Origin: Acidobacteriota bacterium
Lineage (GTDB): Bacteria; Acidobacteriota; UBA6911; RPQK01; JAJDTT01
Length of the DNA: 64,000 nt
Reading direction: 5' to 3'
NCBI GenBank assembly: GCA_965209055.1
Contig: OZ242374.1
Span: forward strand, 2,496,001 to 2,560,000
In this document: piece after piece, positions 5,701 through 30,469 of the stretch
Layout of the letters: each line of letters opens with the position of its first letter
How positions within the stretch are numbered: the stretch's first letter is position 1
Made by a program: the position numbers and the translations under genes
The notes under the pieces: model-generated
Told to the model about the DNA's origin: nothing
The model's input: the letters and a program-made list of their open reading frames with translations, nothing else
The model's database searches: none

Positions 5701-5958
5701 GCTTCCGTGGGAAAAAGTGAGAGTGGGTGCCGGTGAAGCACTAGATTAAGGCTCGGCATTTTTGCCGCGCCGGAATCTCTTCAATACGCCATCTGCGGAG
5801 AAGGTGTCGGCAATGCCGTTGATGTCGGCCGTTCAGGCATTCACCCCGGCCTGATTCGAGCAGCGTCAGGATTGGCTGGCTCACTACCCGCTAGGCGGGA
5901 CCTGTTTCTCATCTACCGGCATCGGATCCTGGGCTTGTTCAGAGCTAGAAGATTGAAT

Positions 5959-6510
5959 CTAGCAAGAGGTTGACGCGGGCCATGTAGCCTTACGAGGGGA
6001 GGGACGGCCGTCGAGAAAGCGGACCGGGCTCGGGAGGCCCTCAGGGGCGCCGTAGGCAGCAGCCCCACAGTCGGATCTGCTCCGCCTCCTGAGGACGAGA
6101 AGTAGGCGTCCCGTCACGAGGAGGAACCTGTGTACCTGAGCCCGGCGGCCCTCGAATATTCCTTGAGATGCAACCACCAATAGCGCCGTGACGACCGGCA
6201 GCAGAAGAATCCACTTCACGGAATAGGGTTTCCTCAGCCTTCAGTTGTGAGAGGCAGAGTCCCGTTGAGGGTTCAGTGTCCCCTCACCATGGCTTGGCCG
6301 GTGGTCGCGGTCTCGGTATTGCTGTTTCAACAGTCCCAGATTCAGCCGTCCGGTCTCGCGGTCCAGATTGGACACCGGTTCGTCCGTGAGGATCAGACTC
6401 GGTTCCATGATGAACGCCCGGGCAATGGAAATCCGTTACCGTTGACCGCCCGAGAGCTGCGTGGCCCTCCGGTAGAGATGCTCTTCCGCCAGTTCAACCT
6501 GATCCTGAAT
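5959..6510 (-). pseudogene. Remnants of an ABC transporter ATPase (PhnC-like) and a downstream membrane protein
   Basis: Minus strand reads [34 protein letters not shown], with a stop just after the signature motif. Confidence 0.7.
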
Positions 6511-6672
6511 CATGCCGGCCCGGCGGCGGTGGTGGGTCGGGAACCCGCCCAGCAGGCCGCGCTAGCGCAAGTTGGAAAACTGGGACAGGGTTCCGCAAAG
6601 AACGTTCCCCAAGACAGTTTCCCGTCAGACGCTGACACTGAACCAGATTCCCGTTGTTTCTACTCCCCTAGG

Positions 6673-6710
6673 GTGTCCGATATCGGACACTGAATCCCAA
6701 AACCGGACAT
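6673..6710. promoter_or_regulatory. Tandem enhancer (UAS) palindromes for a sigma54 activator
   Basis: Perfect palindrome GTGTCCGATATCGGACAC plus a degenerate copy 20 bp downstream; the same motif precedes two other sigma54 promoters. Confidence 0.75.
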
Positions 6711-6795
6711 CCGAAGTGTCCATCGCCGCAACTAAGATTCTCTTGGGATTCTCTAAGGTATTGCAATATAAAGAGATATACGAATGTCTCAGGAT

Positions 6796-6811
6796 TGGCA
6801 CACTGATTGCT
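6796..6811 (+). promoter_or_regulatory. sigma54 -24/-12 promoter
   Basis: TGGCACACTGATTGCT. Confidence 0.85.
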
Positions 6812-6850
6812 TGGATGTTTCACATGAGGAACAACCAAGAAGGGGGTGTG

Positions 6851-8188
6851 ATGATGTCCAAGATCCTGATGGCCGCATTTTCCGTCCTCATCGTTAGTAG
6901 CGCTTGCTACGACAAACAGCAGATTTCGTGGAGCCGGAGTGGCGAGTTCGAGTGGCGGCATGGACCGCGTACCGTCTTTGTGAAGCATCTTGGTGAAATC
7001 GGGTTCGCAGACAATGACGAAGACGTGCTGCGAGTTTCCACTGGGGGGTACCTGTTCATCCAGGAATCGGCACTTTTGGACTCAAGGAGTATGGAATTCA
7101 CTCGCCAGCCGGACGGCTCGGTCGGTCGTCGGTTCGTCGTCAATGGCGAGGAGACAGCCGTGGACCGGGATGCAAGGGAGTGGCTGGCGCGAATGCTTCC
7201 GGAGATTTTGAGGCGGACCGGCATCAACGCCAGCGAAAGAGCGACGCGAATTCTTGATCGCCAAGGATTTGAGGCCCTATTTGCAGAAGTGCGCCTGATG
7301 CCCAGAGATACCGACCGGGTCCGTTATCTTCAGGAAGCGATCGAGTCAGGGGGCCTAACCGAGGACCAAAAGCTACGGATTGTCCACGATGTGGCGACTA
7401 CGTTTTTTATGCCCGACTCCAAGAAGTCGGCAGTGCTTTCAGACTGGGCTCACAAATACAGCGAAGTCGAGCTTCTGGCCGGTCTCTTGAAAGCAGGAGA
7501 AACCATTGGTGCCGACAGCATCAAAGCACGCTTTGTACTCAGTCTCATCGAGCTGCATTGCGGTTCGGCAGAAAAGATGGGAATGATCCTCAATTCGGTG
7601 AAGGGAATTGGATCGGACTCACACAAGGAGAAGGTGCTTGGTGTGGCCACGGACTGTCTATCCCAAGACGATCACTTTCGAGAAGCATTCTTCGATTCTC
7701 TGAACAGTATCCTTTCGGACAGTCATAAGTCGAGTGTGCTGCGCAGGGTCGTCGAAAAATCTGCCGTTACTCCGGTCTCATCGAGTGTTGCCCGGAGCGC
7801 CGAGTTGGGCAAACAACTCGGCGCTAATGAGACTGTGGCGTCGGCACGAGTCAATGGAACCCATGACGTTTACATCGAAGATCCGGGGGTCAGTAAAGAA
7901 TTCTATGGGGCAGTGGACCGAATTGGCTCGAACAGTATTCGGGCGAGTGTTCTCTTGGCAGTTGTACGCCAGTCCGCTTTAGGAAAGACGACCCTCTTGC
8001 GAGTCATCGAATCTGCCGAGTGCCTTCTGAACGATTCCATCAAGGCGGATGTGCTGACGCAGATCGCTCACGTCGCCAGCGACGACGCTGAGGTTTCGAT
8101 GCGAATTCGACAGGCCGCCGAAACGATTGGGTCCAGTCATCTCTTCCGCACGGTTTTGTCGCAACTCGAAGCGAACTCGTCGAGGTAA
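6851..8188 (+). CDS. Exported helical-repeat protein, possibly a lipoprotein; resembles the C-terminal region of M56/BlaR1-like proteins
   Basis: Start reassigned downstream of the sigma54 promoter; signal peptide ending VSSAC; repeated I-x-SD-S-x-K-x-x-VL units. Confidence 0.65.
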   Translation: MMSKILMAAFSVLIVSSACYDKQQISWSRSGEFEWRHGPRTVFVKHLGEIGFADNDEDVLRVSTGGYLFIQESALLDSRSMEFTRQPDGSVGRRFVVNGEETAVDRDAREWLARMLPEILRRTGINASERATRILDRQGFEALFAEVRLMPRDTDRVRYLQEAIESGGLTEDQKLRIVHDVATTFFMPDSKKSAVLSDWAHKYSEVELLAGLLKAGETIGADSIKARFVLSLIELHCGSAEKMGMILNSVKGIGSDSHKEKVLGVATDCLSQDDHFREAFFDSLNSILSDSHKSSVLRRVVEKSAVTPVSSSVARSAELGKQLGANETVASARVNGTHDVYIEDPGVSKEFYGAVDRIGSNSIRASVLLAVVRQSALGKTTLLRVIESAECLLNDSIKADVLTQIAHVASDDAEVSMRIRQAAETIGSSHLFRTVLSQLEANSSR

Positions 8189-9042
8189 AAAAATGGAATG
8201 GAAGGGATTCGACGTCATTAAGCTGAACTGTTGGAAATTCGGATCAGTAGTCGGTGGCACATCATGAGAAATTTTCTTGAGAGTTCTCCCTTGAGCATAG
8301 GCGCCTTGGCTTTTCTGATTGGTCTTCTTCTTTTCCAAAGAGCCGAAGAGTTTGATCAACATCATAGTCATCATTCCTCTAATTCTCCCCTGACGGACCT
8401 GTTAGAACTGGAGACCCCGTTCGCAGAGACTATGCTCAAAACTCAGGATGGAGCTGGGTTGGAGTTGTTAGATCGTTGGACGTTTCTAATATACTCAGGT
8501 GCTCTGGACGAGCGTGGTTTCGACTATCCTGCCGTTTTGCTGAACCGGTACCATAAACGTGGGCTTAATTTTGTGTACGTTATGCCCTCAGCTAGTAACC
8601 CTGCCTGGCTACGATCCGTTTCAAGTTCTCTTAATGGCAGAGCACAAGGCTTTTCTATCGCTTTAGACGAGAGGGGAACGTTTGCAGAGTTGTTAGGTGT
8701 TCCGCGCGGCAGTCATGAGACATATACGGTTTTCGTAGGACCCGACACCCGAGTCAGGTTTGCTGTCCGGAAGAGTCTCCCATCAGATGTCATGCGCCAA
8801 CTCGTAGAACGCAATATTTTGGGGACGATAGACTACAGTCCTCCTTCTCCTCCTCCGGGCTATGTTGTTGGTTCACCGGTCCCCGAAATCGCTGTGCGCA
8901 ATGCCAGGACAGGGAGATCCATTCCTTTATCTACGCTTCTACAAGGACAAGGAACAGTATTGTTCTACCGTGCCAATTGCACGTCGTGCGGGATCGAATC
9001 TGAGATTCACAGACTCGCTACACTGGAAAGAACGGGAATTAA

Positions 9043-10231
9043 GGAAGGTCTGAACAAGTCGATTCAAGGGACGTGAGAGCCGTTATTGTTTCGGCTTTGC
9101 GGTGTCCAAACCTTCATTATGAGGAGTACCACCCTGGCAAGGCTCTGGGTGCCCCCATTCTCAGACTGATTCCCCGAATCTCGACGCACCTCTCCCGCGC
9201 CCGGATCAGGCGTTCACGCCAGAGCGCTCGGCGATCATCAGATTGGCGAACCCCACCAGCAAATAGATCCGTTGGGTGTTTTTCGCCAGCCCCCGGTAGC
9301 GCACCTTCGCGTAGCCGAAATGCCGTTTCAGGTACCCGAATACATGTTCTGCCTTGGCCCGAACCGACGCTTTGCGCCGCTCGGCCAACGCCGCCTCACT
9401 CTCCGGTGGCAGCCGCCAACGCTTCCCCGGCTTCATCATCACCTGCCAATCCACCGGCCGATCTCGATTCTCCGACCGCTTTCCCACTCCCTGGTATCCC
9501 GAATCCCCCCAAACTTGAGACTCCGAGCCGTGCAGCAACTCACCGGCTCGCGTCACGTCATGCTCGTTAGCCGGCGCCGTCACCACCGTGTGCGCCACCC
9601 CCGTCTGGGCGTCCACCCCCAGGTGGGCCTTCATTCCGAAATACCACTGTTTTCCCTTCTTCGTCTGATGCATCTCCGGGTCCCGCGCCCCCTCCCTGTT
9701 CTTGGTCGAGGAAGGCGCCGCCAGGATACTCGCGTCCACGATCGTCCCCCGGCTCAGCCGCAGGCCTTGCCGCTGCAGGTGAGAACCGATCTCCTCGAAC
9801 AGCGCCTCCCCCAGACCATGCTCCTCCAGCCGATGACGGAATTTCAGAATCGTCGTCTCGTCCGGCAGCGGCCCCGTGAGCTTCAGGCCCACGAACCGCC
9901 GCACCGACTCCACCTCATAGAGCAGATCCTCCATCCCCGGATCGCTCAGGTTGTAAAACAGCTGCACGCAGTGGATCCGAAGCATCGTCGAGAGCGGGTA
10001 GGGACGCCGTCCCCGTCCCGCTTTCGGGTAAACGGGCCGAATCCGGGCTTCCAACTGCTCCCATGGAATCAACCGGTCCATCCGGGCCAGAAATCTCTCC
10101 CGACGGGTCACCCGCTTCTTGCCGTCGTATTCCAGATCTGCGAACGTTCGTTGCGACATCATCTATCCTCCATGCAGTGATGATGGAAGAATTATCGTGC
10201 AGAACGCTGACTCGACTTAATCAGACCTTCC
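9043..10231 (-). mobile_element. IS5-family insertion sequence (1189 bp) with TTAA target duplication
   Basis: Inverted repeats GGAAGGTCTGAACAAGTCGA / TCGACTTAATCAGACCTTCC; TTAA at 9039-9042 and 10232-10235. Confidence 0.95.
9206..10162 (-). CDS. IS5-family DDE transposase
   Basis: TRRERFLARMD, GTIVDAS, RDPEMHQTKKGKQWYFGMKAH, GDSGYQG, RAKAEHVF. Confidence 0.95.
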   Translation of the reverse strand: MMSQRTFADLEYDGKKRVTRRERFLARMDRLIPWEQLEARIRPVYPKAGRGRRPYPLSTMLRIHCVQLFYNLSDPGMEDLLYEVESVRRFVGLKLTGPLPDETTILKFRHRLEEHGLGEALFEEIGSHLQRQGLRLSRGTIVDASILAAPSSTKNREGARDPEMHQTKKGKQWYFGMKAHLGVDAQTGVAHTVVTAPANEHDVTRAGELLHGSESQVWGDSGYQGVGKRSENRDRPVDWQVMMKPGKRWRLPPESEAALAERRKASVRAKAEHVFGYLKRHFGYAKVRYRGLAKNTQRIYLLVGFANLMIAERSGVNA

Positions 10232-10612
10232 TTAACATAGCCGAGCTGAAAACCTATGCCATTTTCAGTTACAGCTATTCGTGGCTAGACTTTAAGAGTG
10301 CCGCCGCGCGGTCGGGCGTTTCGTCTGAGATATACGTAGCAACTCATCTTATAACGGAATGGGAAGATCCGTATCGAACTGCGACTGAGCTTAATAGGCC
10401 CATGGCAATAGAAATCGTAGACAACTACATCGCTAAATCTACACCCCTGCCAACATGGATGTCAGCGAAAATCGCAGGCCACAGACAACGGACGTCGGTT
10501 GTCGCGCAACCAGGTCGAATCGGTGAAGACAGATGATTCGTAATCGAATTGAGTTACGGCCGACGTATCAACGTGGGTGGGCTCATACCGTAACAATGAG
10601 TTAGGAGATACC

Positions 10613-11620
10613 ATGCTCGGATTCCTGTTAATGTCTGCCACCATTGTATTTTCAGTCGGAGTGCTGGGAGCTTCATCGAGTGCCTCGACGGTAAGTTCAA
10701 TCGGTATAGAATCAATGTGTGCTGGCGACTTGTTCGCTTGGACTGGGGCGATTCAGAAATTCCAATCTGGACTGCTTGTGCTCGATCAGACAAATCACAG
10801 AATTGTTGTTGTGGGCAATGATGGAACAGCCAAGAATCAGTTCGGGGAGATCGGTCAAGGATACGGGGATCTATTGTTTCCTGAGGCGTTAGCGACGGAC
10901 ACTCATGGGCGCATTTATGTTGTGGACCATGGAAGTTCCTTTATCAAGATTCTTAACGTCGATGGCCAACCGATCACGAGATTTCCTATCGACACTTTCG
11001 TTGATAGCGTGACAGTAAATAGCCGTGGGCACATTCTCGCCAACACACCAAGAAAGGGAAGAATCGTTACCGTATATTCTTTTGACGGGGCTGAGATCAC
11101 GCGCTTTGGGGGACTGATGCCTCTAGATCTGGCGTATCCGGATCAAAACAATGAAGGCAATACAGAACACTGGACAATTCCACTGTCACGGGCGCATGTA
11201 GCAGTTGGTCCAGAAGACGAGATATATGTTGTCTTTAGACATGTGCCGATTGTCCGGAAATACTCCTCTTCAGCTAAGTTATTGTGGGAACACCGCATGA
11301 TGGGAGGGCCGATAGATTCACTCGTGAAGACATTTTGGTCGGAACCCGACTCCATACCTACCACGTCCGCCCGTAACGTGGATGGAGTTCAGTTGAGCAA
11401 CATAGTTATGGACGTTAGTCTGAGCGGTCACGATAATCTGGTGGTCTTGCTTGCTAATGGCGCCTTGTGCGCAATTGATCCTGAGGGGCGTCAGTTGTTA
11501 CTAGCCAAGCTTACGGGCGCCGCTCCACGTGTATATCGCAGTATAACAATCGTCCGGAACTCGTTGGTTCTGGTCGATAGGAGCACATGTTATCGCAGCA
11601 CAACACCCATCGAATTCTGA
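10613..11620 (+). CDS. Secreted 6-bladed beta-propeller (NHL-like) protein
   Basis: RBS AGGAG before ATG 10613; signal peptide; LVLDQTNHRIVV, GEIGQGYGDLLFPEALATDTHGRIYVVD. Confidence 0.8.
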   Translation: MLGFLLMSATIVFSVGVLGASSSASTVSSIGIESMCAGDLFAWTGAIQKFQSGLLVLDQTNHRIVVVGNDGTAKNQFGEIGQGYGDLLFPEALATDTHGRIYVVDHGSSFIKILNVDGQPITRFPIDTFVDSVTVNSRGHILANTPRKGRIVTVYSFDGAEITRFGGLMPLDLAYPDQNNEGNTEHWTIPLSRAHVAVGPEDEIYVVFRHVPIVRKYSSSAKLLWEHRMMGGPIDSLVKTFWSEPDSIPTTSARNVDGVQLSNIVMDVSLSGHDNLVVLLANGALCAIDPEGRQLLLAKLTGAAPRVYRSITIVRNSLVLVDRSTCYRSTTPIEF

Positions 11621-11742
11621 CGTAGTACCGTCTCCCATGAGGAGAAAATATGAAGATCAAGGATGCTGTTGCTAGAAGTCCCCCGCCCTCGCTATGGATA
11701 GAGAGGTTTATCATTCATGCTTTGACGAAGGAGGATAAGATC

Positions 11743-11955
11743 ATGTATTCCATTCCGCGAAAACTGGGAACTGTTTCGTATCTGGCGGTGTGTGTATGTA
11801 TGTTGGTGGTGGGAGCCGCACGGACCAATTCTATCTTGGCTTCCTTTTGTTCTGTCAACTGTTCAGATGGCAGCAGTTGTTCAATTTCATGTAGTAATAA
11901 CGCCAATTGTGGTTGCAGTTGGTGGTCGGGCGCCTACTGTTATTGTGACAGCTAA
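11743..11955 (+). CDS. 70-aa secreted Cys/Ser-rich peptide (candidate precursor)
   Basis: Strong RBS AAGGAGG; Sec-like signal ending ILA; core SFCSVNCSDGSSCSISCSNNANCGCSWWSGAYCYCDS. Confidence 0.85.
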   Translation: MYSIPRKLGTVSYLAVCVCMLVVGAARTNSILASFCSVNCSDGSSCSISCSNNANCGCSWWSGAYCYCDS

Positions 11956-11983
11956 CGACAGCAGCACTACACCGGCATGACAG

Positions 11984-12021
11984 GTGCGGCGGCGGCGATG
12001 CATCGTTCGCCGCCGCCGCAC
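11984..12021 (+). terminator. 15-bp GC-rich hairpin after the peptide gene (mRNA stabiliser or attenuator; no U-tract)
   Basis: GTGCGGCGGCGGCGA-8 nt-TCGCCGCCGCCGCAC perfect inverted repeat. Confidence 0.7.
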
Positions 12022-12085
12022 GTAGCCTAGTGTTCGCACAGGTAGCGAGTTCGGTATTTTGGTCGAAGCAACGGAGCTCGGATCC

Positions 12086-12547
12086 ATGAAGATATATCGA
12101 CGGTCTCCGATCATATTTGGTGTGCTGGCAGTAGCATTGAGTGGGGGGATAACGGTGTTGGTTATGCTCCTCCTGCAGGGTGACGGGCCACATTTGTCAT
12201 TTGATGAGAGGGTTGTCGATTTTGGCACTTTCAATCATGACAGTAAGATCGAACACAAATTCTCTTTTACAAACCGGGGCGATGCGACCCTGAAGATACT
12301 ACGTGTAGTGAGCGACTGTGGTTGCACGGTATCCACGGTAACCTCCAGGCGGTTGGCTCCGGGGGCCTCCGGAGCGATAACTGTTGCCGTCGAGCCACCA
12401 ATCAACGCTCCTGCCTATATAAATGCTCCCGAATCCGAAACTGTGTGGAGAGAGGTCCGGGTGTTCAGTAACGATCCCCAGGAACCATTGCAAGTGTTAG
12501 TGCTCAAAGGTGAGATGGATCGTCGGGATCCTTCTCTTTCTAAATGA
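12086..12547 (+). CDS. DUF1573 Ig-like domain protein, membrane anchored
   Basis: FSFTNRGDATLKILRVVSDCGCT motif; N-terminal TM segment. Confidence 0.85.
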   Translation: MKIYRRSPIIFGVLAVALSGGITVLVMLLLQGDGPHLSFDERVVDFGTFNHDSKIEHKFSFTNRGDATLKILRVVSDCGCTVSTVTSRRLAPGASGAITVAVEPPINAPAYINAPESETVWREVRVFSNDPQEPLQVLVLKGEMDRRDPSLSK

Positions 12548-12574
12548 TCTGCAACCGTAATGGGAGGCTGACGA

Positions 12575-14140
12575 GTGAATATAGGTTGGGTTAAAACAGT
12601 GCTCAGGACAGGTTGGATATCGGGCTTCTGCCTGGTCGTACTGTTCGGACTTTTGGTCCGGACATACAATCTTGGTGAGGCCGGACTATCGTGCAACGAA
12701 TTCGTAACCATACTCACATCACTTCGAGAGGATAGGGAGATAGGCAGCCAATCCAATACACCGTTCACACCAATAACTCTAGATCACGCGGCGGCCACCG
12801 TTACGCCGAGCTCAGATTCCGGAATGCTCAGTGTCGCCGAAGCTGCTAGAGAGAAATGGCAGTTGCCTATGTATTTCTGGATGATGAATGGATGGATTAA
12901 ATTATTCGGAAACTCAGAATTGAGCATCAGGCTGCCTGCGGCACTTATGGGGTCCTTCTCTATCGTCCTAGTGTTTTTGATTTGCAGGCTCATTTTCGAC
13001 ATACGAGTTGCGATTCTTGCTGCTCTCTCCGTCTCCGTCCTGGCAGGTCACATTGAGTTGTCACGAGAAGCGACTTCGCATGTGTTCCTTCTGGGAGTAA
13101 TCCTAGCATCGACATTCTTGGTGCTTGTTTCATGCTTCCAGTCAGCGTCACGTGTTGCATTCGGCGCATACTTGATTACTTCGATCATTGGCATGTTTAC
13201 ACATTATCTCTATCTCCCATACGCTGCCTGTCATGTGATGATCATGCTCTATGGCCTTCGGATGCCAAAGTCACCCATTAATACACTGAAAGCATCGGTA
13301 TCCGTAATAGTATTTTTACTCGGGGTTGTTGGCGTATGCATTATGACACCCTTGTACAGTTCTACGCCATGGCAACATTTGGCACCATTGAAATCGGATA
13401 GTTACATTTACGATGTAGGTAGTGGGGCAGTGGGCGTGATATGGTCCAAGGGCCTGCCCCTTCTCGCAAACTCGTTTGACATTGTTGTCGCGATTACTCT
13501 TATTGTTGTGTCTTTTCGGCTTCTTTCCAAAAGAGAGTCCTCTGCCGTAGTCTTAGGTCTGTGGTTTGCAATACCATTGATCGTTGTTGCGGCGTTGGAT
13601 TTTACCAGTGGGACTGGATTCTTGGGATTGCCGGAATTGTGGATGATACTCGGTTTTCCCGTTCTGCTGGTCATTGCATCGGGCATGGATTGGCTGTTCA
13701 ATAAACCGCTAGGTAGGGAGGCATTGATAGTGTATCTTTCTTGTCTTACCGCTAGTGGCCTGTGGGTCCATGTCAGCGCAACGGATGGACAAGTTGACCA
13801 GCATCGGCAGTTGACGGAGTTTATTGAATCCGTCACGGATACAAATAGCGATGACATCACAATTGTAGAAGGCGGTGAAATCGCCAAGGGAGCAATCGCC
13901 TATTATGCCCGGAGAAATCTGACTATGAAGATATGGGAACCAAACACATTGATGTCACCGTCGAGTTCTGAACTTGATGAGTTTCTTTTGCCCGCTGCCA
14001 TGCGAGGTGCGAAAATTCGATTGGTCACTTTCGGGAATAGCGACGGTAACATAAGACGCCGGGTGGAAGAAGTGGGATTTCGGACCACTGGAGACGACAG
14101 GCGATTTGGCCATGTAAATGTCTATCAATATACATGGTGA
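12575..14140 (+). CDS. GT-C fold glycosyltransferase (GT39/PMT_2, ArnT-like)
   Basis: LVRTYNLGEAGLSCNE, PMYFWMMNGWIKLFGNSELSIRLPAAL, IELSREA; many TM segments. Confidence 0.8.
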   Translation: MNIGWVKTVLRTGWISGFCLVVLFGLLVRTYNLGEAGLSCNEFVTILTSLREDREIGSQSNTPFTPITLDHAAATVTPSSDSGMLSVAEAAREKWQLPMYFWMMNGWIKLFGNSELSIRLPAALMGSFSIVLVFLICRLIFDIRVAILAALSVSVLAGHIELSREATSHVFLLGVILASTFLVLVSCFQSASRVAFGAYLITSIIGMFTHYLYLPYAACHVMIMLYGLRMPKSPINTLKASVSVIVFLLGVVGVCIMTPLYSSTPWQHLAPLKSDSYIYDVGSGAVGVIWSKGLPLLANSFDIVVAITLIVVSFRLLSKRESSAVVLGLWFAIPLIVVAALDFTSGTGFLGLPELWMILGFPVLLVIASGMDWLFNKPLGREALIVYLSCLTASGLWVHVSATDGQVDQHRQLTEFIESVTDTNSDDITIVEGGEIAKGAIAYYARRNLTMKIWEPNTLMSPSSSELDEFLLPAAMRGAKIRLVTFGNSDGNIRRRVEEVGFRTTGDDRRFGHVNVYQYTW

Positions 14141-14225
14141 TATGCCGTGCGTTCGAACGAGTCCGTTGTCCGATCACCCTGTAAGCGCAACATTCACGAG
14201 TAGGAATTTCAGGAGTAGCAGGGCC

Positions 14226-15053
14226 ATGAAAGTAAATGGAACAGTATCCCCGGAACGTAAAGTGGCGATTGTTGGGTTCGCGCCGACAACGAGGCATCAA
14301 GCACCGTTTTTCGACGATGAGTTCGAGATATGGGGGTTGAACGAATTGTACATGTTCATCCCTCGATTTGACAGGTGGTTTGAGATGCATAGGCGTGACG
14401 AATTTGAGAATAGCATAAGAAACAATCGGCACTTGGAGTGGTTGAGGAAGTGTAAGAAACCTATCTATATGCAGGAGCATTTCGATGATATTCCGGGATC
14501 GATTGAATATCCGAAGGAGCGAATGGTCAAGGCCTTTGGAAACTACTTTCGTAGCACTTTCAATTATATGCTGGCCTTGGCAATTGATGAGCAATTCACT
14601 CATATTCACCTATACGGGATTGATTTGATAAGCAAGGGTGAATACATTGAGCAGCGGCCGAGTGGAGAGTACTTTTTGGGTATAGCAAAAGGTAGAGGCA
14701 TTGAAGTCCGTGTTCCCCCCGACTCGTCCCTTCTGAGGGAGGGTGCGTATGGATACGATCAGTATACTGTGGCGGAACAATACGAGATCCGGTTAAACGA
14801 GCTGACAATTCGCAAGCGGAAACTGGAAGGTGATCTCAATCAGGTCATGGGTTCTATTGGAGAATGCCAAGGGCAAACGAAGGTTGGGGCTCCGGGTGTA
14901 TCGTCGGTTACGCAGCTACTGAAGTTGTCGTTAAGTAGTAAACTGCGGCTGAGGATCGAGGCGTTACAGGACCAGCATCGCGTCTTGGCAGCGGAACTCA
15001 ATGTTGTCCTGGGTGCAATTAATGAGTGTAAGTATTGGATGTCACGAGGATAG
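14226..15053 (+). CDS. Putative CMP-nonulosonate-dependent transferase (CstII/GT42-, Maf-like fold) with C-terminal coiled coil
   Basis: RKVAIVGFAPT, EFEIWGLNELY and STFNYMLALAIDEQFTHIHLYGIDL parallel the CstII-type motifs; adjacent to a CMP-NulO synthetase. Confidence 0.55.
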   Translation: MKVNGTVSPERKVAIVGFAPTTRHQAPFFDDEFEIWGLNELYMFIPRFDRWFEMHRRDEFENSIRNNRHLEWLRKCKKPIYMQEHFDDIPGSIEYPKERMVKAFGNYFRSTFNYMLALAIDEQFTHIHLYGIDLISKGEYIEQRPSGEYFLGIAKGRGIEVRVPPDSSLLREGAYGYDQYTVAEQYEIRLNELTIRKRKLEGDLNQVMGSIGECQGQTKVGAPGVSSVTQLLKLSLSSKLRLRIEALQDQHRVLAAELNVVLGAINECKYWMSRG

Positions 15054-15212
15054 ATGTGCCACGTAGTCGGACGGAGTATCTGCAAAGTTGTGAGAATGAG
15101 TGAGCCAAGGATAAAATGTACGCGGCCGTATCCGGCGGGGAAAGGGAGAAACCTGACGGGGGTGGTTGCTGGTGAGGGGTATGTACACAAGTGTGAAAGG
15201 GTGAAGAGCTTG

Positions 15213-15923
15213 ATGAAACCGATTTGCGTGGTTCCGGCTAGGGGCGGGTCTAAGCGACTTCCTCGAAAGAACATAATTGAGCTGGCGGGTAAGCCATTGG
15301 TGGCGTGGGTCATTGGCGCCGCGAGGAGATCCGGCATATTTGCTCATGTATATGTTTCGACCGAAGATGACGAAATCAAGGCGGTTGCCGAGCGTTATGG
15401 CGCGGAGGTCCCGTTCCGACGACCGCGAGACTTGGCGAATGATTCGGTCAGTGCCATAAAAGCAGCTGCACATATGGCTGACACGCTACGCAAGATGGGA
15501 GAAAGGTTTGGAACAGTTTGCGTCAGTGCACCGACCGTACCGCTATTGACGGCAAGAGAGTTTTGCTTCGCCTATGAAATGTTTCGGTCGAGTGGGGCGG
15601 ATGTTCTGTACAGCGTGTGCAAGATGGAAGAGCCACCGCAGTGGGCTCTCAGGCGCAGTGGTAGATGGCTTACACCTTTATTTGACGGCGACAGTTTCGA
15701 AAAGGAGTCGCAAGACCTCGAACCTGCTTACCGAATAGTCGGAGGAATCCAGTTTTTCCGTGCGGATCATCTCAGGCGGAACAGCAATACGTACATAGCC
15801 GATAAAATGATCGGTTACGTGATTGGGCCGGAGATAGGAGTGGAAATCGACACAGCGGAGGATTTACGCAAAGCGCACTATTATCTTCAGCGGCGGGCGT
15901 CGAGGGAGATTGGGTCGATGTGA
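15213..15923 (+). CDS. Acylneuraminate cytidylyltransferase (NeuA/PseF family)
   Basis: VVPARGGSKRLPRKNI, VSTEDDEI, VPFRRPRDLAND, EIDTAEDL. Confidence 0.9.
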   Translation: MKPICVVPARGGSKRLPRKNIIELAGKPLVAWVIGAARRSGIFAHVYVSTEDDEIKAVAERYGAEVPFRRPRDLANDSVSAIKAAAHMADTLRKMGERFGTVCVSAPTVPLLTAREFCFAYEMFRSSGADVLYSVCKMEEPPQWALRRSGRWLTPLFDGDSFEKESQDLEPAYRIVGGIQFFRADHLRRNSNTYIADKMIGYVIGPEIGVEIDTAEDLRKAHYYLQRRASREIGSM

Positions 15924-16071
15924 TGGAATCGCTATGGAGGCGGCGAGTCCATCTGATTTCTGGTGATGAGGGAGAACATGTGTGCTGAAGGCGAGCCTGA
16001 CCGGCGAGAGCGTGTCTAAAGCAGTTTGCTTCCTGGAGGGGGGTGAAGACGTCGGGCTGGAACCTCACACC

Positions 16072-17385
16072 CTACGCCACGGGCAACACTAGCACTGCTC
16101 TGCAGCCCGGCGCCTGCTTCCGGTTGGTCAGGCTAAGGGAGCCGCCGTGGGCTTCGGCGATCTGCCGGGCCAGGACCAGACCGATGCCACTCCCCTGGGG
16201 TTTGGTTGTGAAGAATGGGACGAACAGGTTGGCGGTGTTGGCCAGGCCTTTTCCCTCGTCCTCAACGTAGACTTCCAATTGTTCGCCGACCCGCCTCCAG
16301 CCGATGCTAGCGCCCCCTCCGGTTTCCGATGCCGCGTCAACCGCATTGTGAACCAGATTGATCAGCAACTGCTCCAATTGATCCGGGTCAGCGGGGAATA
16401 GGACCGGTGGCCCGGCGCGAACCACGACCGGCATCCGGGTCTCTAGGCCCACGACCTTCCGGACGGAGTCTTCGATGGAAACCGGGCGCTTGTCCGGGGC
16501 CGGTAACCGGGCGAGCCGGGAGTAGGCACCCATGAACCGGCTCAGAGCCTGGGCCCGCGAGGAAATGACGCGCAGACCTTCCCGCAGGTCATGTTCCCGG
16601 TCCGAATTCGAGATGTCCTGCTCCAAAATGGATTCGAGACTCCCGGCGATGGACTTGATGGGGGTCAGCGAGTTGTTCAATTCATGTCCCAAAACCCGGA
16701 TCAGCCGGCGCCAGGCCTGCCGCTCCTCCTCTCGGAGCGTCTGGTTCAAATCCGTCAGGACCACCAGGTGATGGGGCCGACCCTCCTCGCGAAACACGAT
16801 CCGGTGCATTCCCCAGCGGCCGCTCCCCCCGGGCAATTGGATTTGGAGCGTCTGGACCGGGTCTCCTTTCAAGCAGTCCTTCAGTTTCAGCTCAGCCGCT
16901 GACTTGCCCAACGCTTGGTCTCCCGGAATTCCTAGGAGTCTCTGCCCGGCTCGGTTGATGAGTCGCAGGCACCATCCGTCATCGAACGCGAAGACCGCAA
17001 CGTCGATCTCCTTCATCACCTTCTGCAGCAGGGCGGCCGCCTCGACCGCTCCCAGGCGTTGTCGCCGTAGGACCTCACCCAGAATGTTCAGTTCCGCGGC
17101 AAACTCGCCCAGTCCCTTGTCGGTCCCACTCCGGGCCCGGATGGAGAAGTCCCCTTCTCGAATCGCCGATACCACGTTGGCCAGTGTCTGAAACTGAAAC
17201 GTCAACTTCCGATACAGTAGGATCAGGCCGCCTGACAGGGCTCCCACGGCCAGCAGCGAGAGGCCGTAACGCACTCGGGGATCGTGATCGCCGGTCCAGA
17301 GCAGGACCAGTAGCGCGGCACAGGAGGGGAGGCCGGCGGCAAGAGAGATCAAGATGATCCGCGCCTGAAAGCCCAGCCGATTCAT
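16072..17385 (-). CDS. Sensor histidine kinase (HAMP-PAS-HisKA-HATPase)
   Basis: Two TM segments, LGHELNNSLTPI, LINLVHNA, DEGKG, PFFTTKPQGSGIGL; ATGA overlap with the regulator. Confidence 0.9.
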   Translation of the reverse strand: MNRLGFQARIILISLAAGLPSCAALLVLLWTGDHDPRVRYGLSLLAVGALSGGLILLYRKLTFQFQTLANVVSAIREGDFSIRARSGTDKGLGEFAAELNILGEVLRRQRLGAVEAAALLQKVMKEIDVAVFAFDDGWCLRLINRAGQRLLGIPGDQALGKSAAELKLKDCLKGDPVQTLQIQLPGGSGRWGMHRIVFREEGRPHHLVVLTDLNQTLREEERQAWRRLIRVLGHELNNSLTPIKSIAGSLESILEQDISNSDREHDLREGLRVISSRAQALSRFMGAYSRLARLPAPDKRPVSIEDSVRKVVGLETRMPVVVRAGPPVLFPADPDQLEQLLINLVHNAVDAASETGGGASIGWRRVGEQLEVYVEDEGKGLANTANLFVPFFTTKPQGSGIGLVLARQIAEAHGGSLSLTNRKQAPGCRAVLVLPVA

Positions 17386-18752
17386 AGCCCGAGTTTTTCT
17401 ATGCGCCGGTAGAGGGCGGTTCGGCTCAGCCCCAAGCTTCGAGCGGCGTGGCTCACGTTGCCGCCGACGCGGGCCAGCACCTTGCCGATCAGGACGCCTT
17501 CGGCTTCCTCCAGGGTCATCATCTCCAGCGGATTCGAATCGGGCGAGTCCGCAGGGAGGCTCAGATCCTCCACCGAAATGGAGGACTCCCGGGCAAGTAG
17601 GACGGAGCGCTCCACCACGTGACTGAGTTCCCGGACGTTTCCCGGCCACGAGTAGTGAGCCAGTGCCGCCAGTGCCGGTTCGCCGAATCCTTCCAGATTC
17701 CTCCGGTATTTCTGGTTGTATCGGCCCAGGAAGTGGTTGGCCAACAGAAGGATGTCCTCGCCCCGGTCCCGGAGTGGTGGCAGGTGGATCTCCACTGTGT
17801 TGAGACGAAACAGGAGATCCTCCCGAAACCGGCCGCGGTTCACCTCCTGCTTCAGGTCGGCGTTGGTGGCCGACAGCACCCGCACGTCAACGTTTCTGGT
17901 TCGGGAGGAGCCGACTCGCTGCATCTCTCCGCTTTCCAGGACCCGGAGGAGGTTGGCCTGTTGGCTCACGGGAATGCTGGTGACCTCGTCCAAAAGCAGC
18001 GTTCCTCCGTCGGCCAGCTCGAAGCGGCCGATTCGATCGGTACGGGCGTCGGTGAAGGCGCCCTTGACGTGGCCGAACATCTCGCTGACGAAGACACCTT
18101 CAGAGAGTCCTCCCAGATTGACGGCTACAAGAGGCATTGAGGCGCGAGCGGAGACCGAATGCAGAGTTCGGGCCACCACTTCCTTGCCGGTGCCGTGGTC
18201 TCCTGTGATCAGCACGTGGGCGTCGGAGGGTCCTACCCGGGTGATCAGATCAAGGACGGGCCGCATGACCCGCGACTGTGTGATCAGACGAACGTTTTGC
18301 CGAGAGCGTAGGACCCGGTTCTCCTCCTCCAGACGGCGGCCTAGCCGTAGCGCCCGCCGAATTTCGATCTGGCTCTTCAAGACTATGAGCAGTCGCTCGT
18401 TCTCCCAGGGTTTCGGAATGAAGTCCCGCGCACCGCGCCGCATGGCTTCCACAGCCAGGTCGATTGTGCCCCACGCGGTCATAACGACCACGCGCAGCGA
18501 GCTGTCCACCGACAGCAACTGCGTCAGAAGATCGAGTCCCTCCCGGCCCGAAGTCGTGTCCCGAGCATAGTTCATGTCCATCAGAACGACATCGAGGTCG
18601 AGACGCCGCGCGCACTCCAGGATACGGTCCGGAGTGTCGGCGGTGGTGATTTCGTAGCCCTCGCTCTTTAGCAGGAGGCGGAGGGAAAGGAGCACGTCGG
18701 CCTGATCGTCGGCGATCAGAACGCGGGGTCTTTTGGAACGGGTATTTGTCAT
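17382..18752 (-). CDS. NtrC-family sigma54-dependent response regulator
   Basis: Receiver domain, GDHGTGKE, GAFTDA, LLDE, WPGNVREL, Fis-type HTH. Confidence 0.95.
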   Translation of the reverse strand: MTNTRSKRPRVLIADDQADVLLSLRLLLKSEGYEITTADTPDRILECARRLDLDVVLMDMNYARDTTSGREGLDLLTQLLSVDSSLRVVVMTAWGTIDLAVEAMRRGARDFIPKPWENERLLIVLKSQIEIRRALRLGRRLEEENRVLRSRQNVRLITQSRVMRPVLDLITRVGPSDAHVLITGDHGTGKEVVARTLHSVSARASMPLVAVNLGGLSEGVFVSEMFGHVKGAFTDARTDRIGRFELADGGTLLLDEVTSIPVSQQANLLRVLESGEMQRVGSSRTRNVDVRVLSATNADLKQEVNRGRFREDLLFRLNTVEIHLPPLRDRGEDILLLANHFLGRYNQKYRRNLEGFGEPALAALAHYSWPGNVRELSHVVERSVLLARESSISVEDLSLPADSPDSNPLEMMTLEEAEGVLIGKVLARVGGNVSHAARSLGLSRTALYRRIEKLGL

Positions 18753-18780
18753 CTGGTTCGTTCGTCACGGCGGCAGACAG

Positions 18781-21291: not shown

Positions 21292-21330
21292 AATCAGTAC
21301 GCTCCCTTCCGATCAGTAGCATCCACGGTT

Positions 21331-22029
21331 CTATGCTGCCTCATTCTCGTCGACGATCTGACCGTCGAAGAGGTGGACGGTCCGCTCGGCATGTTCGGCA
21401 TAGCGGGGATCGTGGGTCACGATGCAGACGGTCGACCCTTCCTGGTGCATCTTTCCTAGAAGTTCCATGACGGCTCCACCGTTTCTGGAGTCCAGATTCC
21501 CGGTAGGCTCGTCCGCCAATAGAATCGCCGGTCTGCCCACCAACGCCCGCGCCACGGCGACGCGCTGTTGTTGACCGCCCGAGAGCTGCGCGGGGTAGTG
21601 GTTCATCCGGTGGGACATGCCGACCCGCTCCAGGGACTCCTCCACGCGCCGGCGCCTCTCGACCCGTTTCAGGTTGCGGTAGGTCAGCGGCAACTCCACG
21701 TTCTCGAATACCCGGAGATCGCCGATAAGGTTGAAGTTCTGGAAGATGAATCCGATCTCCCGGTTTCTCAGGTGGGTCCTCTGGGCGAAGGAGAGGCCTG
21801 CCACCGGGTGGCCGTGGAGGTAGTATTCCCCGGCCGTGGGAGCGTCCAGCAGTCCCATGATAGAGAGCAGTGTGGACTTGCCGCAGCCCGAAGGGCCGGC
21901 AATCGAGACGTACTCACCCTTCCTCACCCCCAGGTGGACCCCGGACAGGGCGTGGGTCTCCACCTCCTCCGTCAGGAAGATCTTGGTGATCCCGTTCATC
22001 CGAATCAGCCATTCTCCGTTTCCATTCAT
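21331..22029 (-). CDS. ABC transporter ATP-binding protein (LolD/MacB-like)
   Basis: GPSGCGKST, LSGGQQQR, LLADEPTGNLD. Confidence 0.95.
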   Translation of the reverse strand: MNGNGEWLIRMNGITKIFLTEEVETHALSGVHLGVRKGEYVSIAGPSGCGKSTLLSIMGLLDAPTAGEYYLHGHPVAGLSFAQRTHLRNREIGFIFQNFNLIGDLRVFENVELPLTYRNLKRVERRRRVEESLERVGMSHRMNHYPAQLSGGQQQRVAVARALVGRPAILLADEPTGNLDSRNGGAVMELLGKMHQEGSTVCIVTHDPRYAEHAERTVHLFDGQIVDENEAA

Positions 22030-22059
22030 CGGTTCTTCTCCTTGGTCTGATCTCTGCGC

Positions 22060-23313: not shown

Positions 23314-23340
23314 GCTGTACCTCCTTGTGCTGTACATCCT

Positions 23341-23356
23341 AGCAATCAGTGTGCCA
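23341..23356 (-). promoter_or_regulatory. sigma54 -24/-12 promoter of the exporter operon
   Basis: Reverse complement TGGCACACTGATTGCT, identical to 6796-6811. Confidence 0.85.
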
Positions 23357-23430
23357 AGTTTAGGGAAAGAGTCAAATGTATGTAATTCAATGACTTATAC
23401 GAAATCGGACATTTGAGTCCGAAACCCCGA

Positions 23431-23468
23431 GTGTCCGGTTCCGGGATCACGCGTCCGGTATCGGACAC
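23431..23468. promoter_or_regulatory. Tandem UAS palindromes
   Basis: GTGTCCGGTTCCGGGATC and GCGTCCGGTATCGGACAC, 20-bp spacing. Confidence 0.75.
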
Positions 23469-23584
23469 TTGGACCATAACGGGGAGAAGGACTTCGAGTA
23501 AGTAGAAAAAAACAGATCGGCACGGTCCGGATGCCTTAGGACCGGCGGGATGTGGTGCTGCTCAACCACCGGAGAGCCTCCCAT

Positions 23585-25321: not shown

Positions 25322-25333
25322 GCGGAACATCTC

Positions 25334-28573: not shown

Positions 28574-28781
28574 GAGGATCGCACCTCTTCCGGGAATGCG
28601 GGTCTGGAACCAGGATCTCGTGGATTGAGGATACACTCCGGAGAAAACCCCTGTTGGGATCTTCCCTGGCTGTTGGAGACGGATTCGCCGGTCGGGGAGG
28701 CCGGAACCGTCGGTGGTGGCTTCCGGGCGCGCTTCCTGGATATGATCGGTTCGCCGGTCCCCGGTGGAGAGGTGGATGGAT

Positions 28782-28868: not shown

Positions 28869-28979
28869 CTCTTTGAAAGCCCCCCGCCACAGGCCGCCCA
28901 GGAGATTGAAAGCCGGTTCCGTTCCCTTCCAGGCGATCTCTGGATGTCTTGGGTTTTTTCAACGGGAAACGAGCTGGCG

Positions 28980-30230: not shown

Positions 30231-30260
30231 GGGGGCAACTCCTCTCGACAATTTCTAATC

Positions 30261-30392: not shown

Positions 30393-30469
<77 letters not shown>

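Follow-up and report, generated by a model that had tools for sequence, protein, structure and literature searches.

This locus raises the question of whether three neighboring genes, encoding a GT-C membrane glycosyltransferase, a CstII-like protein and a NeuA-like cytidylyltransferase, work in a single lipid-carrier pathway, as a sequence-only reading had proposed, or in separate roles. The window, by which we mean the whole 64-kb stretch of DNA that was analysed, carries all three genes intact on the same strand within a low-GC stretch, with gaps of 85 nt (GT-C to CstII-like) and 159 nt (CstII-like to cytidylyltransferase). The genes are real and had been named and placed correctly:

12575..14140, + strand: GT-C membrane glycosyltransferase of the PMT_2 / ArnT type (521 aa; Pfam PMT_2, ArnT-like model)
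14226..15053, + strand: CstII (GT42)-fold enzyme, predicted to be cytoplasmic (275 aa; AlphaFold2 model and Foldseek)
15213..15923, + strand: predicted CMP-nonulosonate synthetase (cytidylyltransferase) of the NeuA/PseF/LegF family (Pfam, TIGR03584 and solved NeuA matches)

The same-strand adjacency of the GT-C gene to the other two in the window is a point in favor of a joint pathway. The low-GC stretch is a probable Acidobacteria genome island, and the trio probably decorates an exported molecule. Further upstream, the stretch contains:

6572..9076, + strand: two same-strand ORFs of unknown family (6572-8188 and 8231-9076), in the same lower-GC stretch as the trio
9039..10235, - strand: IS5-family insertion sequence (28-nt terminal inverted repeats, 89% complementary; NF033581 IS5 transposase, E 7.4e-100)

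The IS5 element sits inside the low-GC stretch, with a GC content of 0.60–0.65 versus 0.45–0.54 on either side, and cuts the 3' end of ORF 8231-9076. Neither of the two upstream ORFs matched Pfam, NCBIfam or PADLOC.

The CstII likeness had been proposed from three motifs, all of which are present in the ORF beginning at 14226. This internal ATG of the long ORF 14118-15053 (+) yields 275 aa, and both start and length match those of a 95%-identical homolog (P0001). When the AlphaFold2 model (pLDDT 90.5) was compared to the PDB by Foldseek, ranks 1–15 were GT42 CstII/CstI chains (E 3.6e-6 to 8.1e-4, TM 0.38–0.49, 13–19% identity in the structural alignments), followed at rank 16 by a Pasteurella sialyltransferase. 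Weaker matches were obtained to thiamine pyrophosphokinase (E 4e-3) and to the pterin pyrophosphokinase MptE (E 1.9e-2). The HMMER alignment of the family profile on CstII falls exactly on motifs 1 and 3, at an E of 0.29 that is below significance. The window protein matched no Pfam, NCBIfam or PHROG model and no glycosyltransferase model at E≤1, the latter counting against a transferase reading. Nine of 79 family members gave a weak match to Pfam CST-I (best E 0.0023), the window protein not being one of them; no other Pfam family is touched as often, and the MptE-like model (PF01973) is touched weakly by three. The fold comparison, which the sequence-only reading had called for, thus favored GT42. 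The likeness to CstII exceeds chance, and the Foldseek ranks, the two HMMER motifs and the CST-I matches point to a transferase with CstII fold. Across the 79 family rows, conserved residues are E34 (76), W36 (79), N39 (76), H55 (77), S/T111 (77), G131 (79), Y140 (70), R/K144 (77) and E148 (72); every one is kept in the window protein, which ends in a two-helix hairpin (residues about 182–274). A simple Kyte-Doolittle scan detected no hydrophobic segment in the CstII-like or the NeuA-like protein, in agreement with the lack of signal peptides noted earlier and indicating a cytoplasmic site for both.

The CstII-like family is unannotated and mainly phage-borne. None of its 115 homologs has a precomputed Pfam domain, and the best match of the model in the viral Foldseek library was an uncharacterised Caudovirales protein (E 1.3e-17). 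Members also occur on Chloroflexota MAG contigs, within prophage-like modules of head genes. The sole GenBank phage copy, from a 41-kb Microcystis phage, is deposited as a 'type 11 methyltransferase'; no methyltransferase model gave a match. Among named Atlas clusters, the closest one is MptE-like, a name based on only 16% of its members (score 0.80). In two homologs an intein-like insertion is located 4–5 residues past the G-x-D motif and 2 before Y140. Inteins in enzymes usually sit at key sites, which suggests that the region between the motif and Y140 is such a site.

The start of the cytidylyltransferase ORF (15054-15923) is probably at 15213, since the alignment to the PseF model begins only at residue 57 of the longer reading frame. 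The product matched Pfam CTP_transf_3 (E 2.8e-21) and 219 of the 222 profile positions of TIGR03584 PseF (E 1e-51), and it aligned at full length to solved NeuA / CMP-Neu5Ac synthetases (E 5.7e-32 to 1.3e-20); a KdsB match was confined to the first ~70 residues. By these alignments it is a predicted full-length NeuA/PseF-family enzyme, and its earlier identification holds. The 175.7 bits scored against PseF fall short of the equivalog cutoff (205.7), and the match therefore does not fix which sugar is used. As had been observed for the cassette, neither a NeuB-type nonulosonate synthase nor a GT2 was found among the scanned ORFs of the window, which also lacks a flippase, an initiating phosphoglycosyltransferase and further glycosyltransferases; no flagellar genes were found there.

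We compared the neighborhoods of six other loci with a family member and sought GT-C genes within 8 kb. Only one (L001) had a GT-C gene, 5.8 kb off behind opposite-strand genes and without tblastn match to the window GT-C. GT-C is not the usual partner of this family, which argues for a separate GT-C role. A cytidylyltransferase is encoded near the CstII-like gene in two of the three other Acidobacteriota loci. L003 harbors two CstII-like paralogs, a CTP_transf_3 cytidylyltransferase, a PseH-like GNAT acetyltransferase and three signal-bearing 8-Cys peptide genes, and no GT-C; in L001, a shortened PseF-like ORF lies 3.6 kb away beside a transposase. Together with the adjoining NeuA/PseF relative in the window, these cytidylyltransferases link the CstII-like enzyme to a CMP-sugar. 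All three phage loci, including the Microcystis phage (its genome by deposited annotation), are without a cytidylyltransferase, so the family as a whole may use another donor.

The CstII-fold protein might instead be another nucleotide-using phage enzyme, for example pyrophosphokinase-like or otherwise modifying, beside which the cytidylyltransferase gene came to lie incidentally in a mosaic, IS-ridden island. Consistent with this are the mostly viral family, whose phage copies lack a sugar-activating partner, the two pyrophosphokinase fold matches, the MptE-like Atlas cluster, the 'methyltransferase' deposit and the intein-like insertions, as phage genes with inteins often serve DNA metabolism. 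However, the GT42 E-values are ~1000-fold better than the kinase ones, CST-I is touched by more members than the MptE-like model (9/79 versus 3/79), the cytidylyltransferase recurs in Acidobacteriota, in one case with a PseH-like gene, and no methyltransferase model matched. We therefore regard this alternative as unlikely.

Four features lie between the IS5 element and the GT-C gene:

10577..11620, + strand: exported NHL-repeat beta-propeller protein (Pfam NHL, E 1.3e-5; N-terminal hydrophobic segment)
11743..11955, + strand: small exported peptide, candidate acceptor (70 aa; N-terminal hydrophobic signal-like segment)
11984..12021, + strand: GC-rich hairpin (perfect 15 bp), 29 nt past the peptide stop codon and without a following T run
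12059..12547, + strand: DUF1573 Ig-like protein, membrane-anchored or exported (Pfam DUF1573, E 1.5e-19; N-terminal hydrophobic segment; likely start at the ATG at 12086)

The peptide, preceded by AAGGAGG 8 nt before its ATG, has no family match, and its core of 37 residues contains 8 Cys and 11 Ser (30% Ser). The RNA of 11950-12060 folds at -52.3 kcal/mol (z -4.23), and none of 200 shuffles folded as well. Genes for 8-Cys peptides lie beside the CstII-like gene in two of four bacterial loci, the window and L003; the filter used detected no such peptide in L001 and L002. At phage locus L004, the directly upstream gene encodes a protein of Ser/Thr repeats whose S+T fraction (0.29) exceeds that of all others in the locus; the neighbors at L005 are not S/T-rich. 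The recurrence of the 8-Cys genes, the Ser content of the core and the L004 neighbor suggest the peptide as a candidate acceptor.

The GT-C protein passed Pfam PMT_2 (E 5e-12, 46.7 bits, cutoff 26.1) and has at least seven hydrophobic segments in the Kyte-Doolittle scan and a C-terminal soluble alpha/beta domain. An exhaustive HMMER search returned 3230 relatives at E≤1e-3 and only five at E≤1e-30, and the family profile matched ArnT 5ezm (E 2.5e-4) and AglB (E 3.1e-4). The best Foldseek match of the AlphaFold2 model (pLDDT 82.3, pTM 0.86) was ArnT 5ezm (E 2.3e-7), followed by STT3, AglB, PglB and ALG12; the oligosaccharyltransferases STT3, AglB and PglB came close behind ArnT (E 1.8e-6 to 2.2e-5). 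The modelled fold is thus of the ArnT/OST type. The acidic motif is altered, Asn41-Glu42 occupying the position in the first periplasmic loop where Asp-Glu is usual. The 50 aligned relatives have D (45), E (3) or N (2) at position 41 and E42 throughout, confirming an earlier remark on this exchange. The only N41 carriers are the window GT-C and its 91% ortholog P0116, which also shares the unusual H169. The closest relatives vary between D and E, indicating that position 41 tolerates change.

An inactive GT-C would fit a decaying mobile remnant without coherent present function, in which the donor sugar is unavailable and the genes are hitch-hiking. The Asp-to-Asn exchange, the low GC of the stretch, the IS5 insertion in it with its shortened neighboring ORF, the lack of a synthase in the window and the shortened PseF-like gene at L001 are in line with decay. 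We nevertheless consider it improbable, as none of the three ORFs is shortened relative to its family, the CstII-like protein keeps all conserved residues, a second assembly holds intact copies of the CstII-like protein (95% identical) and GT-C (91%), and the D/E variation speaks for a tolerant position.

The sequence-only reading had joined the trio into a lipid-carrier route, which would be ArnC/ArnT- or Gtr-like with the GT42-like enzyme replacing the GT2: nonulosonate would be placed from its CMP donor on undecaprenyl phosphate, the lipid flipped, and the sugar transferred by GT-C to peptide or LPS in the periplasm. The close spacing on one strand, the absence of a GT2 polyprenyl-phosphate glycosyltransferase and the resemblance of GT-C to ArnT, a user of a monophosphate-linked single sugar, favor such a route, and the shared N41 and H169 could reflect an unusual acidic donor. 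However, GT-C is present in only one of six other loci and not adjacent there, L003 combines both enzyme copies, cytidylyltransferase and peptides without GT-C, the cassette encodes no small membrane protein resembling a flippase, most of the family is viral, with members in prophage-like modules, and the catalytic Asp of GT-C is replaced. A literature search found no paper joining GT-C, pseudaminic acid and undecaprenyl, and enzymes of the GT42 or Maf type are not known to use a phosphate acceptor. Thus, the GT42 fold, the NeuA identity and the ArnT/OST-type GT-C of that interpretation stood, but its single lipid-carrier pathway, with undecaprenyl-phosphate-nonulosonate as intermediate, gained no support and appears very improbable.

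Alternatively, the CstII-like enzyme might cap an Und-PP oligosaccharide with nonulosonate at the cytoplasmic face, and GT-C, as an oligosaccharyltransferase or ligase, would move the finished glycan to lipid A-core or to one of the upstream products, whether the exported peptide, the DUF1573 protein or the NHL protein. CstII itself functions in the terminal capping of glycans, GT-C resembles STT3, AglB and PglB almost as closely as ArnT, also by profile for AglB, and three exported products are encoded just upstream. On the other hand, GT-C is PMT_2 by sequence, a family that includes ArnT-type and PMT-type enzymes, both of which use monophosphate-linked single sugars, the further genes of a glycan assembly pathway (initiating phosphoglycosyltransferase, glycosyltransferases, flippase) are lacking in the window, and five of six other loci have no GT-C, making this scheme rather unlikely.

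Among known systems, the window enzyme shares with CstII/CstI, the GT42 lipooligosaccharide sialyltransferases of Campylobacter jejuni (PF06002 CST-I), a single-domain alpha/beta nucleotide-binding fold, a Gly in the loop that follows strand 1, a conserved Asn just past strand 2, an S/T...A-L-A...G-x-D block aligned by HMMER to CstII residues 124-159, solubility without a signal peptide, and a gene beside that for a CMP-sugar synthetase. It differs in its low identity, the missing PF06002 match, a long C-terminal helical hairpin, the mostly phage-borne family and the intein-like insertion of some members. CstII uses a His as base and two lid tyrosines, which have no demonstrated counterparts in the window family; the latter has its own conserved polar set (E34, N39, H55, H69, Y140, R/K144 and E148), compared with CstII by fold and profile. 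Maf enzymes (PF01973, MptE-like / Maf_flag10) are cytoplasmic and move nonulosonate directly to Ser/Thr of flagellin before export. They belong to the same structural superfamily and may serve as a model for the Ser-rich peptide. In contrast to Maf, the window enzyme lacks the Maf N- and C-terminal domains, PF01973 is touched by only the three members, no flagellar genes were found in the window, and a small Cys-rich peptide or phage structural protein would be modified in place of flagellin; no Maf structure was among the Foldseek matches listed for the model. PMC11339370 describes the Maf central domain as resembling Cst-II and names CMP-Pse, -Leg, -Neu5Ac and -Kdo as Maf donors. With ArnT (GT83)/ArnC and the phage Gtr serotype-conversion systems (GT2, flippase and GT-C), the cassette has in common its ArnT-like GT-C, a mobile low-GC setting and the pairing of GT-C with cytoplasmic sugar-handling genes; unlike them, it is without GT2 and flippase, has Asn for Asp in the Asp-Glu motif, and its cytoplasmic partner is a CMP-sugar-type transferase rather than a polyprenyl-phosphate glycosyltransferase. 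The cytidylyltransferase resembles NeuA/PseF/LegF enzymes over its full length, differing in its score below the PseF equivalog cutoff.

The best explanation, to which we tentatively assign a probability of about 0.4, is a cytoplasmic activate-and-transfer pair of cytidylyltransferase and CstII-like enzyme with GT-C working separately. The cytidylyltransferase would produce a CMP-nonulosonate of the pseudaminic, legionaminic or neuraminic type, using a sugar whose synthesis is encoded at another place in the genome, and the CstII-fold enzyme would move the nonulosonate directly to an acceptor hydroxyl on the cytoplasmic side. By analogy to Maf, the favored acceptor would be the island's exported Ser-rich 8-Cys peptide, modified prior to export, with a lipid-linked glycan as second choice. 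GT-C would use an ordinary polyprenyl-phosphate sugar from a housekeeping GT2 in the periplasm. Its targets there may include these exported products, or its activity may be weakened by the Asp-to-Asn change. The CstII-fold gene itself would derive from a phage-borne family and have been recruited into Acidobacteriota islands.

The putative GT-C glycosyltransferase, the CstII-like enzyme and the NeuA/PseF-like cytidylyltransferase (the trio) are the last genes of a run on the plus strand, preceded by genes for an NHL propeller, a 70-aa peptide and a DUF1573 protein. The features concerned are as follows.

Features of the cassette (window positions)
9039–10235: complete IS5-family element with 28-nt inverted repeats (89% complementary), inside the lower-GC stretch
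10577–11620, plus strand: exported NHL propeller
11743–11955, plus strand: 70-aa exported peptide with a hydrophobic N-terminus and a strong ribosome-binding site (AAGGAGG before the ATG)
12059/12086–12547, plus strand: DUF1573 Ig-like protein, between the peptide and GT-C genes
12575–14140, plus strand: GT-C, 521 aa
14118–15053, plus strand: CstII-like ORF, internal ATG at 14226 giving 275 aa, with length and start as in its 95%-identical homolog P0001
15054–15923, plus strand: NeuA/PseF-like ORF, probable start ATG 15213

Because the PseF model aligns only from residue 57 of the long third ORF, ATG 15213 is the likely start of the cytidylyltransferase. The longer starts at 14118 and 15054 were discarded in favour of 14226, where the alignments of homologs set in, and 15213, where the match to the PseF model does. 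This leaves intergenic gaps of 85 and 159 nt within the trio. The GC content is 0.45–0.54 over 10200–15800 compared to about 0.6 in the flanks; the lower-GC stretch starts near 6600 and is broken by the IS5 element. The left end of this element overlaps the final codons of ORF 8231–9076, whose C-terminus has thus probably been altered. No direct repeats flanking the low-GC stretch were found, the only repeats seen being the inverted repeats of IS5. Eight cassette proteins were compared to PADLOC without a match to any defence-system model, and no cassette protein matched PHROGs. The region 10100–16200 contains 12 promoter-like sites (shuffled sequences: mean 7.3, sd 2.5) and 7 terminator-like sites (mean 5.3, sd 2.4); at these counts, the sites were set aside.

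The sequence-only reading had lined up motifs of the CstII-like protein by eye with those of CstII-type sialyltransferases. No match to this protein was obtained in Pfam (E≤1), NCBIfam or PHROGs, and none of its 115 homologs carries a precomputed Pfam domain. An AlphaFold2 model was built on an alignment of the query with 78 of these homologs (37, chiefly shorter ones, were left out) and reached a pLDDT of 90.5, displaying a single-domain alpha/beta fold of the sialyltransferase type. When the model was compared to the PDB by Foldseek, ranks 1–15 were all occupied by GT42 enzymes (CstII and CstI, E 3.6e-6 to 8.1e-4, TM 0.38–0.49, the query-normalised TM being lowered by an additional C-terminal hairpin), followed at rank 16 by a Pasteurella sialyltransferase. 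Further down appeared thiamine pyrophosphokinase (4e-3), GT29 sialyltransferases (1.5e-2 and weaker) and the pterin pyrophosphokinase MptE (1.9e-2). With these pyrophosphokinases below rank 16 and GT42 filling the places above it, a function of the CstII-fold protein other than glycosyl transfer is doubtful. The window protein did not reach the curated threshold of the GT42 family model (PF06002); among the 79 family members, the Pfam family most often touched is CST-I (9 members, best E 0.0023). The family profile aligned with CstII chains at E 0.29–0.87, which is non-significant, and this HMMER alignment falls on motifs 1 and 3. Matches of the profile to the coiled coils of YbgF, keratin and syntaxin reflect only the C-terminal helical hairpin. 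Taken together, the likeness first seen by eye is a real remote homology of fold and not chance.

Across the 79 aligned sequences, residues of the putative nucleotide-binding motifs are conserved: G17 (78) in the Gly loop that follows strand 1, N39 (76) past strand 2, and S/T111 (77), G131 (79) and D133 (60, plus 8 with Glu) in the Ser/Thr...G-x-D block. The window protein keeps every family-conserved residue and, judged from the alignment, is therefore likely to be active. CstII uses a catalytic His base and phosphate-binding lid tyrosines; H55, H69, Y140 and E148 are the candidate residues in the window protein. No longer or fused forms of the family were seen apart from two intein-bearing members, and no fusion to a cytidylyltransferase or other enzyme occurred.

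The CstII-fold family is mainly viral. ESM-Atlas clusters nearest to the window protein are 89–100% viral, and the best structure match in BFVD is an uncharacterised Caudovirales protein (E 1.3e-17). The organism-labelled close relatives are all from Acidobacteriota MAGs. A contig scan with a 9-row alignment yielded five related genome loci. Two of these, L004 and L005, are head modules of phages, with genes for the portal, the capsid and the connector; their MAG contigs bear the labels Dehalococcoidia and Anaerolineales. Among 50,697 GenBank phage records there was one match, a Microcystis phage gene adjoining the small terminase gene (L006, 5905–6708; PP496355.1, 34781–35584) and deposited as a 'type 11 methyltransferase'. 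No methyltransferase model matched the window protein (E≤0.1), nor did one rank among the 25 families with the most matches from the 79 members (E≤1), so the deposited name is probably a mis-annotation. According to the deposited annotation, the 41-kb genome of this phage lacks a cytidylyltransferase. PHROGs gave no match for the phage homologs either, and no paper on a phage GT42-like family was found in the literature searched. A quick maximum-likelihood tree was built from 86 rows, most of them unlabelled, and rooted at the midpoint only. In it, the window protein fell into a 15-row clade (SH-aLRT 84) together with the three closest Acidobacteriota-labelled rows (L001, L002 and L003b). A divergent paralog from L003, whose branch is long, was placed just outside this clade; the positions of the three phage-labelled rows are elsewhere in the tree.

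Two homologs of the L004 protein (7968–8735), P0266 and P0267, carry an insert of about 264 residues that starts with Cys and ends with His-Asn followed by Ser. It is located 4–5 residues past the G-x-D motif and 2 residues before a near-invariant Tyr, matches LAGLIDADG_3 weakly (E 0.0064, below cutoff) and looks like an intein. With the insert disregarded, P0266 and the uninterrupted L004 protein share 96% identity over residues 1–154. A further homolog, P0058, has an insertion with two CxxC pairs, resembling a zinc ribbon, between the second and third conserved blocks. These cases indicate that the family tolerates large insertions.

The third gene had been taken to be NeuA, and this identification was borne out. 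The protein matched CTP_transf_3 (E 2.8e-21), the PseF model TIGR03584 (E 1e-51, 219 of 222 positions covered) and the solved NeuA structure 9ftb (E 5.7e-32 over residues 4–218); KdsB matched the N-terminus only. From its sequence it is a full-length cytidylyltransferase of the NeuA/PseF family. Its score of 175.7 bits lies below the equivalog cutoff of 205.7, short of an assignment to pseudaminic acid (PseF).

The GT-C belongs to the PMT_2/ArnT family, scoring 46.7 bits with Pfam PMT_2 (cutoff 26.1). A word-based homolog search recovered only its 91% ortholog, P0116, and an exhaustive HMMER search was used for further relatives; of 150 relatives among the matches listed, 49 that cover the query at near full length were aligned with it. 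The model built on this alignment (pLDDT 82.3, pTM 0.86) was most similar to ArnT (5ezm, E 2.3e-7), with STT3, AglB and PglB close behind and 28 GT-C matches at E≤0.001. As noted in the sequence-only reading, the GT-C has Asn-Glu where Asp-Glu is usual in the first extracytoplasmic loop: position 41 is Asp in 45 of the 50 sequences, Glu in 3 and Asn in 2, and E42 is invariant. N41 is no sequencing error, since the 91% ortholog shares it, and this subfamily admits variation at position 41, as the three Glu belong to the closest relatives. Another lineage-specific change affects the near-invariant residue 169, which is His in the window protein and its 91% ortholog and Tyr in 47 of the 50. A cassette that is a decayed remnant would accommodate the departure from Asp-Glu; with the conserved residues of the CstII-like enzyme kept and the cytidylyltransferase full length, we regard this as improbable.

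The neighbourhoods of family members were compared across six other loci, the context being known for 5 of the 115 homologs.

Other loci with a CstII-like family member (GT-C within 8 kb; cytidylyltransferase; Cys-rich peptides)
L001, Acidobacteriota: GT-C 5.8 kb upstream, behind opposite-strand genes and unmatched by the window GT-C in tblastn; PseF-like ORF, truncated, next to a transposase; no peptides
L002, Acidobacteriota: no GT-C; no cytidylyltransferase; no peptides
L003, Acidobacteriota: no GT-C; intact cytidylyltransferase; three peptide genes
L004, L005 and L006, phage loci: no GT-C; no cytidylyltransferase; no peptides

The most telling locus is L003, from an Acidobacteriota MAG (features at 3878–4096, 5783–6016, 6080–6313, 6439–7257, 7312–7896 and 7980–8762). 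Here, two CstII-like paralogs occur on either side of a CXXC-containing, weakly thioredoxin-like membrane protein, together with three signal-bearing 8-Cys peptide genes, of which two form a near-identical tandem pair. The locus further encodes an ECF sigma factor, a CarboxypepD_reg protein, the cytidylyltransferase and a PseH-like GNAT acetyltransferase; a GT-C is absent across its 16.7 kb. Thus, an association of the CstII-like enzyme with a CMP-sugar-type activating enzyme is moderately supported, and one with Cys-rich exported peptides is seen in two of the four bacterial loci. An association with the GT-C is not supported: the trio had been read as a single unit, and only one of the six other loci has a GT-C within 8 kb, which is not adjacent. 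A scan of the 50-odd window ORFs with Pfam and NCBIfam revealed no nonulosonate synthase, no GT2 that could form a donor for the GT-C and no flippase, in line with the earlier remark that the cassette lacks a NeuB synthase and a GT2. In contrast to the ArnC/ArnE-F/ArnT and GtrB/GtrA/Gtr-type systems, neither a GT2 polyprenyl-phosphate glycosyltransferase nor a small flippase was found next to the window GT-C.

The CstII-like enzyme had been proposed to load nonulosonate onto a polyprenyl carrier for transfer by the GT-C. This lipid-linked donor is a striking idea that rests on adjacency in one locus only, and no paper joining GT-C, pseudaminic acid and undecaprenyl was found; we consider the route highly improbable and would not carry it forward without experiments. 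Capping of a glycan by the CstII-like enzyme, with the GT-C acting as oligosaccharyltransferase, would fit the structural proximity of STT3, AglB and PglB; given a GT-C near the enzyme in so few loci, it is rather unlikely. The GT-C is most likely independent and would act in the periplasm on a conventional polyprenyl-phosphate sugar.

Neither the CstII-like nor the PseF-like protein contains a hydrophobic segment, which agrees with the absence of signal peptides noted before, and the two would form a cytoplasmic activate-and-transfer pair. In view of the adjacent NeuA/PseF-family gene, the CstII-like enzyme may use a CMP-nonulosonate or -ulosonate donor; L003 likewise has a cytidylyltransferase gene close to that of the enzyme, and L001 a truncated one. 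Our favoured acceptor would be the Ser-rich 70-aa peptide, as Maf enzymes share the CstII-like core and glycosylate Ser/Thr in the cytoplasm. Maf enzymes are described as placing CMP-activated Pse, Leg, Neu5Ac or Kdo directly on flagellin Ser/Thr (PMC11339370). Unlike the Maf flagellin glycosyltransferases (PF01973), the family touches the MptE-like/Maf_flag10 model in only 3 of 79 members (best E 0.034), and the window ORFs scanned include no flagellar genes.

The core of the peptide comprises 37 residues with 8 Cys and 11 Ser; an ESM Atlas search with it gave weak leads only (best 0.82). A perfect 15-bp GC hairpin without a T run follows 29 nt past its stop codon (region 11743–12021), and the RNA of 11950–12060 folds at −52.3 kcal/mol (z −4.23). 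The order at 11743–12021 recalls bacteriocin/RiPP operons, in which a small structural gene is followed by a hairpin and then by enzyme genes. A parallel acceptor candidate, as a lead, is the 313-aa product of L004 6970–7911, whose gene immediately precedes that of the phage CstII-like enzyme, in the interval separating the capsid gene from the head-tail connector genes. It consists largely of AVSSTGTGTFN-type Ser/Thr/Gly repeats and has the highest Ser plus Thr fraction of the locus (0.29). Ser/Thr-rich neighbours as a general rule were rejected, L005 displaying no such enrichment. Mycobacteriophages offer a precedent for virion proteins being glycosylated by phage-encoded enzymes.

Directly downstream of the cassette, on the opposite strand and at normal GC (16072–25330), are genes for a sensor kinase, a sigma-54 response regulator (best model of the PEP-CTERM-box type, below cutoff), an ADOP duplicated permease, an ABC ATPase, a membrane-fusion protein and a TolC-like protein. 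The ADOP-family match in the surrounding genome scores 794 bits, and this permease family is typical of Acidobacteria. The exporter set could serve the island peptide; nothing connects the two. A second mobile-looking region (26609–30469) holds an ArdC-N/zincin-like metallopeptidase ORF and a tyrosine integrase (28980–30251), with tRNA-Leu (28782–28869) and tRNA-Ile (30393–30469) adjoining the integrase region. The long ORF 26609–28990 overlaps tRNA-Leu and so probably begins, in reality, at a more internal position.

Enzymes with a sialyltransferase fold have chiefly been described in the glycosylation of flagellin and in animal-associated bacteria, where they serve the mimicry of host glycans. 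The present analysis adds a separate family without a Pfam, NCBIfam or PHROG model, residing mostly in phages and including intein-bearing members, whose fold points to CMP-sugar chemistry. Its function is open to test, since soil-type Acidobacteriota encode the enzyme next to a CMP-nonulosonate synthetase and to exported small peptides rich in Cys. A bolder reading, to which we give a probability of roughly 0.12, is that these proteins are O-nonulosonyl (or related acidic-sugar) transferases of proteins and peptides. In phages they would modify Ser/Thr-rich head proteins with host CMP-sugars, and in Acidobacteriota they would have been recruited together with a cytidylyltransferase of their own to modify 8-Cys peptides ahead of their secretion. 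If true, no nonulosonate transferase encoded by a phage, and no secreted peptide carrying a nonulosonate, would have been described earlier.
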